Shown here piece by piece: positions 4,026-11,523 of a DNA stretch of 62,411 nucleotides. The notes beneath the pieces were generated by a model. That model saw only the letters and a program-made list of their open reading frames with translations. It had not been told where the DNA came from and made no database searches. The first letter of the stretch is position 1. Every line of letters starts with the position of its first letter. Position numbers and translations under genes: made by a program. The DNA comes from Candidatus Thorarchaeota archaeon (GTDB lineage Archaea > Asgardarchaeota > Thorarchaeia > Thorarchaeales > Thorarchaeaceae): positions 79,340 to 141,750 of the forward strand of contig JBHLRQ010000001.1 of assembly GCA_048882385.1 (NCBI GenBank). Reading direction: 5' to 3'.

Positions 4026-4087
4026 GATTAAGTTAGATGGGACAAGCGGCTTTAATACCATGCTGTACACTGGTCGCTACGATAAAA

Positions 4088-5074
4088 GTGCTTGAGAGTC
4101 CAATAGAAGGATGTTTTATTGTAACTATTGACAATCTCATCTTTGAGGTTAAAGGAGTAGTTCATCCAAAGGATCGGATTATTGCATACCTTCGCTATAT
4201 TCCTTCGATAGATTCGGATAGTGGATTCAGAAAGGTGTACAATCTTGAGGAACGAGAGAACTATCTCAGAGAGAACTATCCAGATTATTTGTGGTACAGC
4301 GAACCTTATGGAAGATTGATACAGTCAGTTTCGATGAATAAGATTGAATCAATTCTTGATCCTGTAGATTATTTAGCTCAGTTGCAGAGCACAGATAAGA
4401 TAACACATCTAGAACAGGTATCTGTTACCCTAGCAAAGAAATTAGTAGAAACTACTGAGATTGATTGGAGAGATATTGGACTAACAGGTTCTCAGCTTAT
4501 TGGTGTGGCAGGTAAAGATTCTGATATTGATTTGGTAATATATGGATCATCAGCTTGTCGAAAATTCTACTCTAATCTCTCAGCAAGAATTAATAGTATT
4601 CTTGAAATCGAGAAATATTCTGGTAAGCTACTGGAAGACCATGTTTCATTTAGATGGGGAGCTCATAATGAATTACGTTCTCTTCTTCTAGAGATTGAGA
4701 GAGATAAATTGTTACAGGGTTTGATTGGTAACTATCATTTCTTCATTAGATTGGTAAAGACGCCAAGTGATCTTGACTATGATTATGGTGATTTGTCTTA
4801 TCAGATGTTGGGTCATCAAAAAGTATCTGGAAAAGTGATTGATAGTAGTGATTCAATATTTACACCCTGTGAATATCAAGTAACATGTGTCAGTAATCCA
4901 AATCTTGAGAAACTTGTAAGCTATCGAGGAAGATTTACAGAACATGTTTCAGCAGAAGATAAGTTTGAAGCATTTGGAAGACTTGAGTTAGTAATAGATC
5001 ACAAAGTTGACAGTCAGTATATGCAACTAGTACTGGGTGAACTTCCTAGTGATTATCTGATTCCTATCAAGTAA
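4088..5074 (+). CDS. Predicted nucleotidyltransferase (Pol-beta superfamily, COG1665-like)
   Basis: GLTGSQLIG...SDIDLVIYG signature; N-terminal FEVKG..HP..RIIAYLRY; GTG 4088 preferred. Confidence 0.75.
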   Translation: MLESPIEGCFIVTIDNLIFEVKGVVHPKDRIIAYLRYIPSIDSDSGFRKVYNLEERENYLRENYPDYLWYSEPYGRLIQSVSMNKIESILDPVDYLAQLQSTDKITHLEQVSVTLAKKLVETTEIDWRDIGLTGSQLIGVAGKDSDIDLVIYGSSACRKFYSNLSARINSILEIEKYSGKLLEDHVSFRWGAHNELRSLLLEIERDKLLQGLIGNYHFFIRLVKTPSDLDYDYGDLSYQMLGHQKVSGKVIDSSDSIFTPCEYQVTCVSNPNLEKLVSYRGRFTEHVSAEDKFEAFGRLELVIDHKVDSQYMQLVLGELPSDYLIPIK

Positions 5075-5092
5075 TCATACATCGATTCTGAA

Positions 5093-5532
5093 TTCACAAT
5101 CTGTTCATGTTTACATAAATTCACACATAGTTAGTGTGAATGGCGCCAATATTGTGAACACTCTGTGAGAAACAGTCATCTTATCGCCTTAAGAATAGAA
5201 TAGAGGTACGATATATGCGGTGATGCCTGTGAATAAGCACACCCCTTCGTTTCCAGTGGAAACAGGTAAGAAGAGATATGAAATGCTTTCATGTTCATTC
5301 ACAAGGTTCATAGATTAGTGAATAATGAAACAAATGGAGAGTCCCGTTTATTTACCAAAAAAAGACCTCATAATCCTTTTTTGTGTTCAAATGGACTTCA
5401 CAGGACGTCAGCACAGTAAATACAGGGTGGACGAGGTCTTTATGTGTACAGACGCACTATGTCGCTCTTATCTTGGTATAGATAATTCACATACTCACAC
5501 TTATTTGCAATATCATTATAGTTGATTGTGAA
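5093..5532. repeat. Cluster of nine TGTGAA/TTCACA boxes
   Basis: Copies start at 5093, 5120, 5135, 5153, 5228, 5298, 5397, 5486, 5527; includes inverted repeat ATTCACAC-N7-GTGTGAAT at 5119-5141. Confidence 0.8.
5241..5263 (-). promoter_or_regulatory. ORB-like element (origin recognition box)
   Basis: Reverse complement reads GTTTCCACTGGAAACGAAGGGGT: TTCCAxTGGAAA dyad plus G-string, as in archaeal ORBs. Confidence 0.75.
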
Positions 5533-5559
5533 TAGTCAATAGTATAGGAGATTCAATAA

Positions 5560-6186
5560 TTGACAGACGACAGGAGTAACTATGTGTATGAATTCACTTA
5601 TAGCTCAGCTCCTGGTCTACGCGAGATCTTTCAGTGTAAGTATGTCCAACCGGATGAGGCTCTCAACAGATTTAGGAAAATACTAGCATTGACCGAATCA
5701 CCCTTTGATTTCAAGATAGTCGTATCAGATGAAACAATGGGAGAAGAATCTAGTTTTCAGGTCAAAGGTGGTAGTATCGAGGAAATGTTTGTCAAGTTTA
5801 AGGTCTTCTTGGAAACAAGTACCGGATATATCTTTGAACCAGTCAGTAAAGAAACCACAGAGGTCGGATTAGAAGATACACGATTTGAATCTATGAGTAA
5901 CTATGACAAGATGCAAGTGATAATCTATGCATCCTTTAAACATGGAAAGTTCTCCTCTCTCGATGTTACTGAAATCTATCAAGACTCTTTCAATGAAGAT
6001 TTGCCTAAGAGTACAGTATCTACCTATCTTGCTAGAATGTGGAATAATGGAAAGGGCCATCTAGAGAGATATGGAAATCGTTCTGGTTATACGTATAGAC
6101 TTCGAACAGAAATTGCAGAAGTCCAGAAAGAAACTGAAAGAGCAGAAGAGCTTTTAGCTGCCATACAAATGCGAGTTGGGGAATGA
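5560..6186 (+). CDS. Hypothetical protein with C-terminal winged helix-turn-helix
   Basis: FSSLDVTEIYQDSFNEDLPKSTVSTYLARM...LERYGNRSGYTYRL fits a wHTH pattern; SD-like AGGAG upstream. Confidence 0.7.
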   Translation: MTDDRSNYVYEFTYSSAPGLREIFQCKYVQPDEALNRFRKILALTESPFDFKIVVSDETMGEESSFQVKGGSIEEMFVKFKVFLETSTGYIFEPVSKETTEVGLEDTRFESMSNYDKMQVIIYASFKHGKFSSLDVTEIYQDSFNEDLPKSTVSTYLARMWNNGKGHLERYGNRSGYTYRLRTEIAEVQKETERAEELLAAIQMRVGE

Positions 6187-6215
6187 AATCAGGTCACTCC
6201 CCATCAATTTGACTG

Positions 6216-7532
6216 TCACAAATCAAAGACTTTTTCGTCCATCTTGATATCAAGAGATTCTAATTCCTCTAGAATAGGTTCATAGATTTCGGGAATAATA
6301 GGTCTATGAACTCCGGTTAAGGAAATCTCACCTTCTAAGATCATCCTGCTTGCTATAGCAACAGGTAGAGCTACAGTTCTTGACATCGAGCTGTCACCAT
6401 TTGGAATACCATAGTCAATGAGAGTTGAAGTGACCTTCTGTTTCTTATCGGGATATTCTACTATGAATTCATGATGCATAACTATCATATCACGCTCTCC
6501 AGGTGCATACTGTAGCTTCTCTTCAAAGAGATTACAGAGAGCGTCTAAGATTGTGTTTATACCTGAAGGAATCTGTTTTTCTTCGAATAGGCCCAACCAT
6601 TCTAGACGCTTGATGATAGGATCATCCTGTTTGATACCACATGTCTTGGCGACTGCAAGTTCAATGTCTAGTTCATCAGTTGATGTTAGCTCTCGCATGA
6701 GACCAGCATATGTTGTTCCATCAAAGGATCTTTCTTCAATATCTAGAAGACCCAGATCAGCAATTTTGTCTAGCGTATCACACCAACCAACATTTCTGAA
6801 TGTCCCACGAAGCATGGTTTTTGTTTCTTGAATGTTGTAGATATCAATGTAAGAAAGACTATCTCGGTTTGGATATCCTTCGAATGTACCTATACCGGGG
6901 ACTTCCATAAGCTCACAGTTCTGAAAGAGATCTGCGCCAGGAATTTTGATTTCTTTTCCATCTCGAAGGAATAGTGCATCATTCCGACCAGCAAGAAGTA
7001 CACCTCGTGGACTCCATGATAATTTGTAGCCGTATGGATTATTGTTAGCGTCAGGAGCTGGAAGTCCACCTGTGAAGGAAGTGAAGCTTACAATCTTACC
7101 ATTGTTATTATGAGCTTCATCAATAATCTTCATTGCACTCATGTGATCAATGCCTGGGTCGACTCCACACTCATTTAGAAGTAATATGCCAGCTTTCTTC
7201 GCATCGTTTTCAAGTGCTTTCATTTCATCGGAAATATATGATGTAGTGCAAAAGTGAGTCTTGTGTTTAATTGCAACTTTCGCGGCCTTGACATGATATG
7301 TGTAAGGTAGTAATGAACAAACAAGGTCAGCTTTCTTAGTGAGCTCTTCAAGTAGTTCATCATTTTCTGCAATATTGAAAGCGACAGCTTCTGTATTCTT
7401 GCATCCCTCGATTAGACGTTCAGCTTTACTCTTTGTACGACTAGCAACAATGACATAGAACCCATTGTCTGAGAGATATTGGATATATGGGCGAGCAACT
7501 AAGCCTGCGCCCAGACACACTATTTTTTTCAT
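6216..7532 (-). CDS. Saccharopine dehydrogenase (glutamate-forming; Lys9/AASS C-terminal type)
   Basis: LGAGLVA Rossmann motif, NECGVDPGIDHM, YKLSWSPRGVL, EGYPNRDS, MSRTVALP. Confidence 0.92.
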   Translation of the reverse strand: MKKIVCLGAGLVARPYIQYLSDNGFYVIVASRTKSKAERLIEGCKNTEAVAFNIAENDELLEELTKKADLVCSLLPYTYHVKAAKVAIKHKTHFCTTSYISDEMKALENDAKKAGILLLNECGVDPGIDHMSAMKIIDEAHNNNGKIVSFTSFTGGLPAPDANNNPYGYKLSWSPRGVLLAGRNDALFLRDGKEIKIPGADLFQNCELMEVPGIGTFEGYPNRDSLSYIDIYNIQETKTMLRGTFRNVGWCDTLDKIADLGLLDIEERSFDGTTYAGLMRELTSTDELDIELAVAKTCGIKQDDPIIKRLEWLGLFEEKQIPSGINTILDALCNLFEEKLQYAPGERDMIVMHHEFIVEYPDKKQKVTSTLIDYGIPNGDSSMSRTVALPVAIASRMILEGEISLTGVHRPIIPEIYEPILEELESLDIKMDEKVFDL

Positions 7533-7543
7533 TCGTTGTTCTC

Positions 7544-8836
7544 CTATTGGATATATTGTGTGAGATATTGATAGTTCTCAGTTAATCTACCCTGGTATAC
7601 GATTATTGCATCTTTGAGCTCTCGGGGTAGATCGAGCTCTGAAAATGGTAAAGTAAAATCTGCTCTTGCCAAAGCAGGAATAAAATCGAGAAGTGTTTCA
7701 CTGAACGACATAGATGATTCTCGTGGAAGTTCAGCTGGAAGATTGTCAACTGCCATCACGACTGGACCATCGCCTTTGACACCCAATTCAGCTCGATCCT
7801 CATCAATAATGTATGTGAATGCGGGTCTGTCTGGCTTTGTACAGTTTAAGGTAAATTCAATCGCACCTTGTACATCACATGATATGTCGCCTACAATCTG
7901 GAGTTTTCGAAAGTCTTGTTTCCAATATTTTTTAATGAACTCCTTAGTAATTAGGCGAGGATACTTATCAGACCAGTAAATGCAATTCATGAGTATAGTA
8001 ATGTGTGGAATATACTTGTGAAATATGCCTACATACTTTGCTTTTCCATTCTTGTAGTAGTCTTGAAGATCAAACTTCTGAGATGGATCTTTGGGTTCAA
8101 CCATATGTTCTTCCTTGAAAACGCATTTGTATATCAAGTCTGATTTTGGAGGCAGTCCGTCAATTTCATCTGGATTAACAACTTTGTGTGGAAGAATATT
8201 GAATATCTCTTGAGCTCCTCTTGATACATTACCATATCCTGCAAAGCCAATTACAAAAGGAGTAAGCTCTTTGGGAAGTCCCTGCTCCTTGATACGAGAA
8301 CCAAGATCAGAGAATTCCTGTTTCAGTTGGTCAATCCCTCCAAGTTCAAGAGTTGGTTTCATTTCTGCAAATGGATTAGGTCTGATACCTTGTGACTTTA
8401 GACGATTACCAAGCATTCGGAAAGTATCTGATATCCCAGCCATTCCTGCCCAGTTTCCAAAGAAGATTAGTCTTCGACCCTTATCATCAACAACACGTTC
8501 GTAATCAATCAGAGTCGCTCCAACATCCATGATTCGTTTAAGCATTGGCATATTGTAATCTTGACCCTTGATAGTGTGACTAAAGAATACATAGACAATG
8601 TTCTTTTCAAAGAAATCGATAGGCATTTCCTTGATTCCTAGTACAACAGGTGTTTTACTACCTTTTAATGGTAAAACTTCTGCCTGATACTCATCTTCTT
8701 TGAATGCTCGTTGATTGCTTGGTTCAAGAACAAATTCAATGTTATGATTTTCATTTAGTAGTTTGACATGATCAGGTATCAATGGGACTCGGGTTTCGAA
8801 TGCTTTCTCTTCTTTCCTAAGTCCAATTCGGTTCAT
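7544..8836 (-). CDS. Lysine-ketoglutarate reductase / saccharopine dehydrogenase (lysine-forming; AASS N-terminal type)
   Basis: ETRVPLIP, FFSHTIKGQ.YNMPML, LIDYE, GYGNVSRGAQEI, DISCD..GAIEF, AVDNLPAELPRESS. Confidence 0.9.
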   Translation of the reverse strand: MNRIGLRKEEKAFETRVPLIPDHVKLLNENHNIEFVLEPSNQRAFKEDEYQAEVLPLKGSKTPVVLGIKEMPIDFFEKNIVYVFFSHTIKGQDYNMPMLKRIMDVGATLIDYERVVDDKGRRLIFFGNWAGMAGISDTFRMLGNRLKSQGIRPNPFAEMKPTLELGGIDQLKQEFSDLGSRIKEQGLPKELTPFVIGFAGYGNVSRGAQEIFNILPHKVVNPDEIDGLPPKSDLIYKCVFKEEHMVEPKDPSQKFDLQDYYKNGKAKYVGIFHKYIPHITILMNCIYWSDKYPRLITKEFIKKYWKQDFRKLQIVGDISCDVQGAIEFTLNCTKPDRPAFTYIIDEDRAELGVKGDGPVVMAVDNLPAELPRESSMSFSETLLDFIPALARADFTLPFSELDLPRELKDAIIVYQGRLTENYQYLTQYIQ

Positions 8837-8966
8837 TGGATAATCTCCTATATCATGTATCAGACAATGTCGACCGCCGTGCTACCTACGCTTTAACTTT
8901 TCCGTGCAGGCTATGTATTACTAGCACTCAAAATCAGAACACGTGTTCCTTAATTGGTCGTTTCAA

Positions 8967-9257
8967 TTGAGTTCATATTTGTATCTCTATGATTGTCGTC
9001 ATGCAAGACGTACTAATGCAAGACGAGTTGCATTTACGAAGGAGCTTTACGGCTATACATATTCTTGGAAAACAAAGTCTGGAGTCAAACAGAAAAGAAA
9101 ACCTGGTCTCTTAGATGAATGTCTAGGAGCTATTGCGGTTGCTGATTCAGCAATATTAGTTCCATCTGAACATCGTATTGTTTTTGATTCTCTCTTTGAA
9201 ATGTATGAAGATATTCTAAAGATTCGGATCTATGAAGTAGTTCAAGAAATCATATAG
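8967..9257 (+). CDS. Small hypothetical protein, possible Cas2/VapD-like ferredoxin fold
   Basis: YLYLYD N-terminal strand, helix RVAFTKELYGY, VADSAILVP; TTG 8967 preferred over GTG 8943. Confidence 0.55.
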   Translation: MSSYLYLYDCRHARRTNARRVAFTKELYGYTYSWKTKSGVKQKRKPGLLDECLGAIAVADSAILVPSEHRIVFDSLFEMYEDILKIRIYEVVQEII

Positions 9258-9343
9258 AACACGTGTTCTATCTGCTAATACTTGTAATACAATGAAATTG
9301 TATCAAAAATAATCTTAGAACATGTGTTCTGAAGACATTCGAA

Positions 9344-9508
9344 CCCCCTTGTTTCCACTAGAAACTATTCAAAAATGTCTAATCGTTAAAATATCCAAAA
9401 ATATTTATAATCGTTTATTCAGCTGCCATTTATCTCCATTTTTTTAATGCATATACATACCCTCGCTGCTTGAATTCTCCATAGATCATTCCACTGGAAA
9501 TCAGGGGG
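9344..9508. promoter_or_regulatory. oriC: Candidate replication origin: two inverted ORB-like boxes flanking an AT-rich spacer
   Basis: 9344-9365 (-) GTTTCTAGTGGAAACAAGGGGG; 9489-9508 (+) TTCCACTGGAAATCAGGGGG; 123-bp AT-rich spacer. Confidence 0.7.
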
Positions 9509-9630
9509 TCTTATCCGAGAAATACTAACTAGAACACGTGTTCGAAATACAAAAAATAAGGGCTAAGACCACAAAACTGATACATCATTCGTATTCCCAC
9601 TCGAAACATCCAAACATGGAGGATTAGAGA

Positions 9631-11523
9631 TTGGCCAAAGCCAACGAACTTCTTGAGGATAAACCAGGAAAAGAAATTCTTCTCCTTGCCAATGAAGCAA
9701 TTGCTCGAGGTGTATTAGAAGCCGGTGTTCGACTTGTCGCTCTCTATCCTGGCACACCAAGTAGTGAAATTGGAAACAATCTGACATCCATGGCACCTCA
9801 CATACCAAACTTCTACTTTGAATTCAGTACAAATGAGAAGGTTGCTCTGGAAGTGGCAGGGGCAGCTGCTGTTGCAGGTGTGAGATCCATGATGGTCTGT
9901 AAAGGTCCAGGTCTCAATGTAGCAGCTGATCCATTCTTTTCACTTACATATGTTGGTGTTCGGGGAGGAATGGTGGTAGTTGTAGCAGATGATCCAAGTA
10001 TGTGGAGTTCTCAAAACGAAAATGACAGTAGATACTATGCGCTCATGGGAAACATGCCAATGATGGAGCCTGCTGATCCAATTGAAGCAAAATCTATGCT
10101 TCTTGAAGCCTATAAGTTCTCAGAGCAACTCGAATTACCAGTACTGTTTCGTACCACTACTCGGGTTAATCATACACGAGCTCCTGTGACGTTCGGAAAA
10201 ATACTACCTCGTCCAGATAAAATCGAGTTTGAAAAGGAACCATTCCGATTCGTCCCTGTTCCATCTGTTGCACGTAAACGACACCCTTGGCTCCTTAAAC
10301 AGATAGAGAAAGCGAAGGAATTGTCTGAAAAAAGTCCCCTGAACTATGTTGAGGGAAAAGGCGACCTTGGGATAATCACTTCTGGCGTTTCATATACATA
10401 TATAATTGAAGCACTTTCCTACATGGAAATCAAAGCTGAGGTTCTGAAGCTTGGAATCACTCATCCAGTTCCTGAGAAAATGATCACAGAATTCTTGCGT
10501 CGTCATAAACAGGTTATGATTGTAGAAGAATTAGAACCATTCCTTGAAACACATGCTAGACGGTTAGCACATTTGAACAAAGTCAATGTCGACATCCTTG
10601 GAAAAGAACAAGGTATCTTCTCTCGTACCTACGAATATAGTCCAAAGATTGTAATGAATGCTCTAAAGGAAATTACTACACGTAATACACCTATTAATTG
10701 GGAGGCCATTGACAAGAAAACAAAGGAACTACCTGAATTACCCCCAAGACCCCCACTTCTATGTGCTGGATGCCCGCACAGAGCAACTTACTATGCAATC
10801 CGAACTGCGACAAGAGGAAAAGCAATCTATCCTTCAGACATTGGTTGCTATACTCTAAGTATTGCACCTCCACTAGAAACAGCTGATATCCTGTTCGATA
10901 TGGGATCTTCAATAACTACTGCATGTGGTCTTGCTGAAGTCACAGACCAAGACGTTGTTGCAACTATTGGTGATAGTACATTCTTTGCATCTGGTCTTCC
11001 AGGCATTGCAAACGCAGTTTATAATCAACATCGAATCTGTGTTGTAATACTTGATAATCGAACCACTGCCATGACAGGTCATCAACCCCATCCTGGTACA
11101 GGAATAACAGGTATGCAAAAAGAAGTTCCACCTCTGGATATTGCAGAAGCATGCAAAGGTCTAGGCGTCAAATATGTCAAGACTGTTGAACCATTCGAAT
11201 CAATGGCAAGTTTGGTTGCTGAAGTACGTGAGATGGTAAAATGGACAAGAGAGAATCATAGTCCTTCAGTACTAGTTTCGATAGAGCCATGTGCACTTCT
11301 CACTGCAGCAGAACGTCGTCGAACAGGAGAATTTCCACCTAGGTACTTTGTAGATCCAGAGATATGTAATGCATGCAAACGTTGTCTCAATCGCCTTTCT
11401 TGTCCTGCAATGTACATGGATTCAGAAACAGAACAAGCTGTGATTGATGAAACTCTGTGTAATCTCTGTGGGACCTGTGTTTCAGTTTGTCCACAAGGCG
11501 CAATAAAACAGGAGGATGCCTAA
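9631..11523 (+). CDS. iorA: Indolepyruvate:ferredoxin oxidoreductase alpha subunit
   Basis: NEAIARG, YPGTPSSEI, NEKVALE, PPRPPLLCAGCPHR, DIGCY, IGDSTF, C-terminal ferredoxin Cys motifs. Confidence 0.95.
   Translation: MAKANELLEDKPGKEILLLANEAIARGVLEAGVRLVALYPGTPSSEIGNNLTSMAPHIPNFYFEFSTNEKVALEVAGAAAVAGVRSMMVCKGPGLNVAADPFFSLTYVGVRGGMVVVVADDPSMWSSQNENDSRYYALMGNMPMMEPADPIEAKSMLLEAYKFSEQLELPVLFRTTTRVNHTRAPVTFGKILPRPDKIEFEKEPFRFVPVPSVARKRHPWLLKQIEKAKELSEKSPLNYVEGKGDLGIITSGVSYTYIIEALSYMEIKAEVLKLGITHPVPEKMITEFLRRHKQVMIVEELEPFLETHARRLAHLNKVNVDILGKEQGIFSRTYEYSPKIVMNALKEITTRNTPINWEAIDKKTKELPELPPRPPLLCAGCPHRATYYAIRTATRGKAIYPSDIGCYTLSIAPPLETADILFDMGSSITTACGLAEVTDQDVVATIGDSTFFASGLPGIANAVYNQHRICVVILDNRTTAMTGHQPHPGTGITGMQKEVPPLDIAEACKGLGVKYVKTVEPFESMASLVAEVREMVKWTRENHSPSVLVSIEPCALLTAAERRRTGEFPPRYFVDPEICNACKRCLNRLSCPAMYMDSETEQAVIDETLCNLCGTCVSVCPQGAIKQEDA

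Follow-up and report, generated by a model that had tools for sequence, protein, structure and literature searches.

Among the replication origins described in archaea, those of the Thermococcales and of Sulfolobus are the closest to the locus analysed here. According to the sections of Matsunaga et al. (2007, PMC1904270) that deal with origin structure, two clusters of origin recognition boxes (ORBs), both bound by Cdc6 in vivo, flank the cdc6/orc1 gene of Thermococcales: one is that of oriC, and the other, composed of ORB3 and mini-ORBs, lies in dp1. For Sulfolobus, the relevant passages of Dhanaraju et al. (2025, PMC12141716) report that oriC1 requires a second motif, ucm, which is bound by a protein other than the initiator; this protein, UBP, is beta-rich, 111 amino acids (aa) long and confined to Sulfolobales and Desulfurococcales, and its motif occurs once in the unwinding element and at hundreds of other genomic sites. 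The same passages state that Sulfolobus oriC3 is defined by WhiP, a winged-helix protein, and they raise the question of analogous origin-binding accessory proteins in other archaeal lineages. We analysed a stretch of 62,411 bases (hereafter the window), part of a 141-kb contig (C1) in a 3.7-Mb, 256-contig, 95%-complete assembly (G000) of a Thorarchaeota (Asgard) archaeon. The subject of the analysis is a gene-free spacer of 485 bp (5075-5559), in which a single ORB is combined with an array of nine TGTGAA boxes, together with the adjoining gene of a 208-aa winged-helix protein (5560-6186, plus strand). With a probability of about 0.55, this spacer is an accessory arm of the origin neighbourhood and at the same time the control region of the winged-helix gene, its boxes being most likely bound by the product of that gene.

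The spacer is bounded by the stop codon of a nucleotidyltransferase-domain gene (4037-5074) and by the TTG start codon of the winged-helix gene. Exact matches to TGTGAA, or to its complement TTCACA, begin at positions 5093, 5120, 5135, 5153, 5228, 5298, 5397, 5486 and 5527; they occur in both orientations, and seven of the nine are extended to TGTGAAT. The whole window contains 60 such matches, which is an ordinary number (the mean of shuffled sequences is 63), so it is the clustering alone that is unusual. The genome-wide density of the hexamer (0.85 per kb) corresponds to 0.38 matches per 450 bp, and the Poisson expectation for intervals with at least nine matches anywhere in the genome is approximately 3e-6. 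The array (nine boxes in 450 bp) is the top-ranked TGTGAA cluster of the 3.7-Mb genome. The second-best cluster (contig C4, position 2415) has six boxes and was put down to chance, because it lies inside a coding frame of 1013 codons.

The ORB of the spacer, a recognition site of the Orc1/Cdc6 type, is located at 5241-5263 on the minus strand. Its core is an exact match to the 13-mer TTCCAGTGGAAAC (5251-5263), forming a dyad of the TTCC-N-GGAAAC type, and since a CCCC run (5241-5244) stands 4 bp to the left of the core dyad (5249-5263), the whole is a full-length ORB. The same core is found in the Pyrococcus ORB oligonucleotides, as given in the corresponding part of PMC1904270. When up to two mismatches were allowed, TTCCAGTGGAAAC was matched eight times against 1.8 expected. 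About 4 kb further on lies a canonical origin core (9344-9509), in which two ORBs (9344-9365 and, inverted, 9489-9509), with their G/C runs facing outward, enclose an AT-rich spacer of about 120 bp (9366-9488); we refer to this arrangement, in which the AT-rich spacer represents the DNA unwinding element (DUE), as ORB-DUE-ORB. Apart from these two loci, at 5.2 and 9.3 kb, the assembly has a single match to the full-ORB pattern, on contig C4 (position 52038), which was ascribed to chance since it falls within a coding frame of 445 codons. The intergenic full ORBs of the assembly are therefore confined to 4.3 kb of this window, whose third ORB has a TAG centre and falls outside the search pattern. 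A preliminary description of this DNA had reported nine clustered boxes with an expectation below one, a near-consensus ORB at 5241-5263 and a winged helix-turn-helix gene downstream. All three observations hold: every box was located and the array heads the genome, the ORB has an exact core as well as the C-run, and a winged helix (residues 107-181) appears in the AlphaFold2 model of the protein.

Relatives of the 208-aa protein numbered 307 at E <=1e-3 in a collection of 5.8 billion proteins. Among the matches listed (the best 120 of the 307) identity was 85-100%, and those bearing names came from metagenome-assembled genomes of Thorarchaeota or Promethearchaeota/Sifarchaeia. We collected 44 genomic loci of Thorarchaeota, 43 of which include enough upstream DNA to be judged. 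In all 43 the ORB core stands 304-343 bp ahead of the start of the gene match, and the 700 bp upstream of the gene contain 8-12 TGTGAA boxes; the combination of ORB and boxes is thus conserved upstream of the homologs in Thorarchaeota, as the preliminary description would lead one to expect. Neither the gene nor an ORB was found in the 40 kb examined of one further Thorarchaeota genome (G236, 86% complete), which reflects either a loss or an assembly gap.

Alignments of 17 and of 15 Thorarchaeota spacers showed little or no variation in eight boxes, a GGCGCC element and a promoter-like block. The order of blocks begins with TGTGAATGGCGCC, followed after 5 bases by TTGTGAA, then by a box 6 bp from the C-run, the ORB, ATTCACA and GTGAAT; in the 3' part it continues with a 24-bp block that combines a box with a TTATTT stretch, and ends with a last TGTGAAT about 25 bp on. 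In the window, box 1 (5093-5098, minus strand) is moderately conserved, and box 2 (TGTGAAT, 5119-5125, minus) forms an inverted pair with box 3, which is fused to GGCGCC in the 13-mer TGTGAATGGCGCC (5135-5147, plus), unique in the genome. Box 3 and the adjoining GGCG are invariant in 17 of 17 aligned sequences, the final CC being altered at one base in a single sequence. Box 4 (5153-5158, plus) and box 6 (TGTGAAT, 5297-5303, minus) are likewise invariant, and box 5 (TGTGAAT, 5228-5234, plus) is the one placed 6 bp from the C-run of the ORB. The C-run itself is kept in the aligned sequences, while the three central bases of the ORB vary. A degenerate tenth box, AGTGAAT (5316-5322, plus), reads TGTGAAT in some relatives and has an invariant GTGAA, and the box at 5397-5402 (minus) is retained in close relatives only. 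The near-invariant 24-bp block (5484-5507, plus) contains box 8 on the minus strand (5485-5491) and the TTATTT stretch, and is probably the TATA-like promoter of the winged-helix gene. Box 9 (TGTGAAT, 5527-5533, plus) is invariant and, since it follows the TTATTT stretch by about 25 bp, would lie near the transcription start.

Such strong conservation, together with an open reading frame (ORF) of 66 codons that starts with ATG (5325-5525), might suggest that a small RNA, or a peptide of 66 aa, is encoded here. We regard this as extremely improbable. There was no Rfam match in 4900-9700 at E <=1, and RNAalifold, applied to 15 Thorarchaeota sequences, predicted 32 pairs, none of which was accompanied by a compensatory change; the pairs chiefly join invariant inverted boxes. 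The mismatches in the ORF, by codon position, are 0.37, 0.37 and 0.33, and thus show no excess at the third position, as against 0.14, 0.11 and 0.55 in the first 140 bases of the winged-helix gene, and the frame is broken in 39 of 43 relatives. These results rule out an RNA gene or a coding region. From the comparison and from these null results we consider 5075-5559 a conserved non-coding platform that carries an accessory Orc1 site, a TGTGAA(T) array and the putative promoter of the winged-helix gene.

The relationship between the platform and the ORB-DUE-ORB core became apparent from a locus (L077) of the sister family, which belongs to the same taxonomic order. Here a divergent orc1, an ORB with nine TGTGAA boxes, the winged-helix gene and a 97-aa ORF (41% identical to the 104-aa ORF of the window) are contiguous and follow one another in this sequence; beyond the 97-aa ORF come a palindrome, a degenerate ORB, an AT-rich stretch, an ORB, another palindrome and iorA, the product of which shares 54% identity with that of 9631-11523 in the window. 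The lysine genes are absent from the corresponding position. These are the two saccharopine-dehydrogenase-type genes of the window (6216-7532 and 7544-8836, minus strand; Pfam Sacchrp_dh and AlaDh_PNT), which separate the two arms here, and which were found between the arms in 43 and 42 of the 44 Thorarchaeota loci, the missing ones being loci that end short. Because the arms are contiguous in L077, the 5.2-kb and 9.3-kb loci represent two arms of one ancestral origin neighbourhood. The preliminary description had suggested a bipartite origin split by the lysine genes, and had asked whether the ORB loci are contiguous in relatives without these genes; L077 answers this in the affirmative. Judging from gene order, the ancestral Asgard layout would have placed the platform between orc1 and the winged-helix gene, adjoining the ORB-DUE-ORB core, and Thorarchaeota appear to have gained the two lysine genes between the arms and lost the adjacent orc1. 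No Orc1 ortholog was present within 6 kb in any of the 44 Thorarchaeota loci. The most divergent of these (L043, 60% protein identity) has the palindromes, the small ORF and iorA upstream of the platform, not downstream, which shows that at least one rearrangement of the origin neighbourhood has taken place within Thorarchaeota.

The preliminary description had also envisaged the winged-helix protein as an initiator comparable to WhiP, in which case the spacer would be an independent second origin. The occurrence of repeated boxes beside the gene of a DNA-binding protein fits this proposal, as does the precedent, described in the pertinent part of PMC12141716, of a winged-helix protein that defines an archaeal origin; weak fold matches to the winged helices of the Cdt1 C-terminal domain and of Cdc6 were obtained as well, among many tied ones. 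Nevertheless, the sequence scan of the spacer revealed a single ORB, with no inverted ORB partner and no marked AT-rich unwinding stretch, whereas the canonical ORB-DUE-ORB core is only 4 kb away and in the sister family is contiguous with the platform. Moreover, the protein has one generic winged helix and no Pfam family, and its Cdt1 and Cdc6 matches are tied with dozens of repressors. This part of the earlier proposal therefore found no support: a separate origin with a dedicated initiator is highly improbable, and an initiator role for the winged-helix protein is unlikely.

Compared with WhiP itself, the present protein is similar in being a winged-helix protein encoded beside an archaeal origin, where WhiP acts and where a role of our protein is predicted only. 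WhiP is a Cdt1-like protein with tandem winged helices, in contrast to the one winged helix found here, and it defines an origin without Orc1, whereas in the window a full ORB is embedded in the array and the ORB-DUE-ORB core is nearby.

The Thermococcales come closest as a precedent for an ORB site that is accessory to oriC and lies a few kb away from it. As far as the origin sections of PMC1904270 describe them, in both cases two ORB-bearing sites (here one ORB at 5.2 kb and an ORB pair at 9.3 kb) are separated by a few kb, enclose a conserved gene and keep a conserved layout (in Thermococcales across an order), and in Thermococcales the sole initiator-bound region of the chromosome holds both of them. 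The bracketed gene there is cdc6/orc1, while here it is an uncharacterised winged-helix gene, with orc1 more than 6 kb away. In addition, the second Thermococcales cluster is situated within coding sequence and is made up of ORB-type repeats only, whereas in the spacer an unrelated class of TGTGAAT repeats has been added.

The association is not limited to Thorarchaeota. A search with the family profile gave matches in 224 of the 301 sampled Asgard genomes, nearly all of them in single copy. Forty-two of these genomes belong to one family (f9) and their matches are probably non-orthologous: in the five f9 genomes re-examined (G008, G065, G279, G228 and G204) they proved to be weak and to represent proteins of about 300 aa, encoded on contigs other than that of orc1. 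When f9 is set aside, homolog-bearing genomes probably number about 180 of the 301. We examined 40 loci from Asgard families other than Thorarchaeota. A strict ORB dyad occurs <=1.6 kb from the gene in 26 of them (the chance, by our estimate, is about 0.03 per locus), and 22 of these 26 have a C/G run beside the dyad. Upstream box clusters were recognised in 25 of the 40, with a TGTGAA density of 5.82 per kb upstream of the gene vs 0.57 per kb elsewhere. An Orc1 ortholog is encoded within about 3 kb, in tandem or divergently, in 22 of the 40, and in complete genomes the neighbour of the winged-helix gene is the best-scoring Cdc6 gene. The GGCGC(C) element (5142-5147 in the window) is also shared: in six Asgard families it is fixed at about 105 bp from the C-run of the ORB (loci L078, L080, L084, L085, L087, L089 and L091), and the boxes that flank it are degenerate in f8 and in one f12 locus. 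Outside the Asgard group, at two Nitrososphaerales loci a homolog and orc1 are divergently oriented, and the region separating them contains ORBs.

Comparison of these families also bears on the question of what reads the boxes. That the 208-aa protein does so is, in our judgement, slightly better supported than the opposite. One genome (G012) is syntenic on both flanks with another member of its family (G023) and keeps orc1 and three ORB-like sites, but the homolog was not detected in it and only two TGTGAA boxes are present in 8 kb. Both the gene and the boxes are kept in G023, and a genome of the same genus as G012 (G034) has the gene, two ORBs and eight boxes. This paired absence of gene and boxes, with orc1 and ORBs retained, suggests that the protein binds the boxes. 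The same is suggested by variation of the box sequence, which tracks residues 151 and 152 (window numbering) at the start of the recognition helix. In 11 of 11 families with TGTGAA clusters these residues are S, T or N followed by T. In the three families whose boxes are of the TGTTAAC(A) kind, one or the other residue is changed: in f7 and f12, where the boxes are the palindrome TGTTAACA, they are SV and AT, respectively, and in f16, where the boxes read TGTTAA, they are QT. As further indirect support we count the conservation of the array ahead of the gene and the finding, described below, that the boxes of family f5 accompany the ORB.

Two further observations concern these exceptional loci. 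At the locus of G012, a complete genome (L099, 3007-5375, compared with L107 and L090), the gene and boxes are replaced by approximately 2 kb of unrelated sequence, which holds a 122-codon ORF without similarity to the winged-helix family. In the upstream regions of f7 (L119, L118) and f12 (L120, L121), the asymmetric TGTGAAT gives way to the 8-bp palindrome TGTTAACA; this implies that the geometry of binding differs between members of one protein family.

Alternatively, the boxes might be bound by another factor (a nucleoid-associated protein, for instance, or the second Orc1/Cdc6 paralogue), in which case the winged-helix gene would be no more than a conserved neighbour of the origin. Candidates exist, since every genome examined has two to four Cdc6-type genes, and according to the relevant passages of PMC12141716 the second origin motif of Sulfolobus is bound by a protein encoded elsewhere. 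Furthermore, in family f5 (eight wide loci from seven genomes) a cluster of 7-9 boxes is placed on the ORB, in the interval that separates the gene from orc1 and 1.5-5 kb from the gene, so that the boxes go with the ORB and not with the gene. The loss of gene and boxes together in G012, where orc1 and ORBs were retained, speaks against another factor, as does the way in which the box variant follows the changes in the recognition helix. Even in the seven f5 genomes the gene is no more than about 5 kb from the boxes, and in most other sampled families it directly adjoins them. On balance we find it unlikely that another factor reads the boxes.

The f5 loci are also informative with regard to a further possibility, namely that the spacer is only a promoter, from which Orc1 and the winged-helix protein regulate the winged-helix gene (ancestrally also orc1), with no direct role in origin firing. 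The platform does stand directly upstream of the gene and includes both the near-invariant TTATTT block and a box close to where transcription is inferred to begin, and in many families it is common to divergent or tandem orc1 and winged-helix genes; the fold of the protein is, in addition, like that of PadR, BlaI and MarR repressors. On the other hand, in f5 the ORB/box cluster has been kept although it is not obviously upstream of either the gene or orc1; that the boxes stay with the ORB indicates that they are part of the origin region and more than a promoter feature. The Thorarchaeota ORB, in turn, has been rigidly kept with orc1 gone from its vicinity. A purely transcriptional function thus seems to us quite unlikely.

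According to the reading that we favour, that of an accessory origin arm combined with a control region, Orc1/Cdc6 would occupy the single ORB (5241-5263), and the winged-helix protein would occupy the TGTGAA(T) boxes, including the one that overlaps the presumed transcription start; autoregulation of the winged-helix gene would be the result. The assembly of Orc1 and the winged-helix protein could then tune expression of the gene, firing of the nearby origin, or both. A bolder proposal, which we put forward only tentatively and consider doubtful, is that the 208-aa protein is a sequence-specific accessory replication factor of the origins of Asgard archaea and of some Nitrososphaerales, which coats the array beside ORB-bound Orc1 and helps to load, position or release the minichromosome maintenance (MCM) helicase.

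The predicted structure of the protein is compatible with DNA binding. Its TTG start codon (5560), preceded 8 nt upstream by GGAG, corresponds to ATG, GTG or TTG in the aligned relatives, while an in-frame GTG at 5584 is not conserved. The AlphaFold2 model (predicted local distance difference test, pLDDT, 81) consists of a two-layer alpha/beta domain (residues 8-88) of beta-beta-alpha-beta-beta-alpha order, a disordered linker (95-107), the winged helix-turn-helix (107-181) and a long C-terminal helix (186-206). Outside Thorarchaeota the protein is 140-180 aa long and is devoid of the first beta-beta-alpha unit. The C-terminal half (107-206) superposes on repressors of the PadR, BlaI-MecI and MarR types with Z scores of 8-9 (Foldseek E approximately 3e-3 to 1e-2). 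The best superpositions were with the cyanobacterial clock-associated protein Pex (Z 8.9, root-mean-square deviation (rmsd) 3.2, 91 residues aligned) and S. mutans smu.1704 (Z 8.8, rmsd 4.0, 92 aligned), followed by PadR-family chains (Z 7.8-8.4). The winged helices of Cdc6, ORC and Cdt1 match this half equally, all within one Z unit of the repressors, and the Cdt1 C-terminal domain was ranked seventh by Foldseek (E 6.8e-3), tied with many repressors. For the N-terminal domain, folded alone (pLDDT 78), the fold searches found no convincing structural relative: the best match was a designed protein (Z 6.1), with weak matches to ERH and p19. Neither half of the protein thus reveals a function by its fold.

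The window protein had no Pfam match at E <=0.01, though two distant relatives, P0131 (28.1 bits) and L097 (26.9 bits), exceed the cut-off of Penicillinase_R (PF03965, 22.6 bits), with P0132 marginal at 22.8 bits. Searching PDB sequences with a profile at E <=1 retrieved four weak, unrelated chains (generic winged-helix regulators at most), and the ESM Atlas returned unnamed clusters only. The modelled fold is what one would expect of a protein that recognises specific DNA sequences, yet it does not separate a regulator from a replication factor. Like the PadR, BlaI-MecI and MarR repressors, the protein has a winged helix followed by a C-terminal helix; it differs from them in its extra N-terminal domain, which has no clear relative, and in that its gene adjoins origin elements in the majority of the sampled Asgard loci.

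Several observations weigh against the spacer being an accessory origin arm read by the winged-helix protein, and should be borne in mind. The winged-helix fold is generic and, as modelled here, is compatible with a transcription factor as well as with a replication factor. The joint absence of gene and boxes amounts to one event. The contrast between residues and boxes was set post hoc and concerns three lineages (f7, f12 and f16) that may not be independent of one another; besides, a mixed locus occurs in f16, and at one locus of f12 the residue is changed although a TGTTAA cluster is lacking. In f5 the upstream region of the gene itself has no boxes, and autoregulation is therefore not universal. 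Of the 40 loci from other families, a clear box cluster is missing in 15 and a strict ORB dyad near the gene in 14: those of f17 and f25 have neither, as do some loci of f20 and f3, other loci of which possess an ORB. Finally, not every family of the phylum possesses the module, since f9 has orc1 without a strict ORB or an ortholog of the gene: the strict full-ORB pattern was absent from all three f9 genomes searched, despite the presence of an Orc1 ortholog, and no winged-helix ortholog was found on the orc1 contig in the five genomes examined. The origins of this large and highly complete family may use different recognition elements.

With respect to the second class of origin element, the ucm/UBP pair is an obvious point of comparison. 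As described in the parts of PMC12141716 concerned with them, ucm is likewise a second conserved origin element besides the ORBs, with a reader other than the initiator, for which there is a candidate here. The differences are that our candidate is a winged-helix protein and that the boxes are arrayed outside the unwinding element, in a cluster that has no equal elsewhere in the genome. The fold matches listed for the 208-aa protein did not include UBP; no direct comparison with the UBP sequence was made. A certain resemblance to plasmid origins of the iteron/Rep type also exists. These carry short repeated boxes in both orientations beside the gene of a winged-helix DNA-binding protein, as does the spacer. 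The present locus, however, is chromosomal, its gene order is the same in 42-43 of 44 Thorarchaeota loci and it includes boxes of the Orc1 type. Taken together, the module appears to behave as an accessory element of the origin, equipped with a reader of its own, while its protein family, its box and the layout of its array are unlike those of the Thermococcales, UBP and WhiP systems. Full-text literature searches found no description of Asgard ORBs, the TGTGAA box or the 208-aa protein.

Some features of the surroundings deserve mention. The 104-aa ORF that flanks the origin core (8943-9257, plus strand) has no Pfam family but is conserved, being present in 37 of the 44 Thorarchaeota loci. 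Four palindromes of the GAACACGTGTTC type (8937, 9257, 9318 with one change, and 9532) bracket this ORF and the core, and the ORF product and the palindromes may constitute a second origin-flanking pair of protein and site. Nine exact GAACACGTGTTC sites were counted in the genome, three of them beside the ORB-DUE-ORB core. The two Cdc6-type genes of the genome are on the same contig, approximately 63 kb and 20 kb upstream (C1:20.6-21.9 kb, taken here as Orc1, and C1:63-66 kb). Such a location of Cdc6-type genes away from the ORB loci in Thorarchaeota is unusual for an archaeal origin of the ORB type. In one single-contig Thorarchaeota genome, the best-scoring Cdc6-type gene is approximately 1 Mb from the ORB loci. 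GC skew along the 141-kb contig follows gene strand and gave no usable inflection, and the Pfam search revealed no mobile-element neighbours among the window ORFs examined.

To conclude, the comparison performed in this study locates the likely oriC of Thorarchaeota, and the array and the protein adjoining it point to an undescribed origin-associated factor. They provide a candidate answer to the question, raised in the passages of PMC12141716 referred to above, of accessory origin-binding proteins in other archaea, and they nominate for study a pair composed of a short box and a small protein that is widespread in Asgard archaea. Should the protein indeed prove to be an accessory replication factor, it would be a lineage-wide winged-helix counterpart of the Sulfolobus UBP, and might possibly show how additional winged-helix origin factors arose on the way toward eukaryotes.

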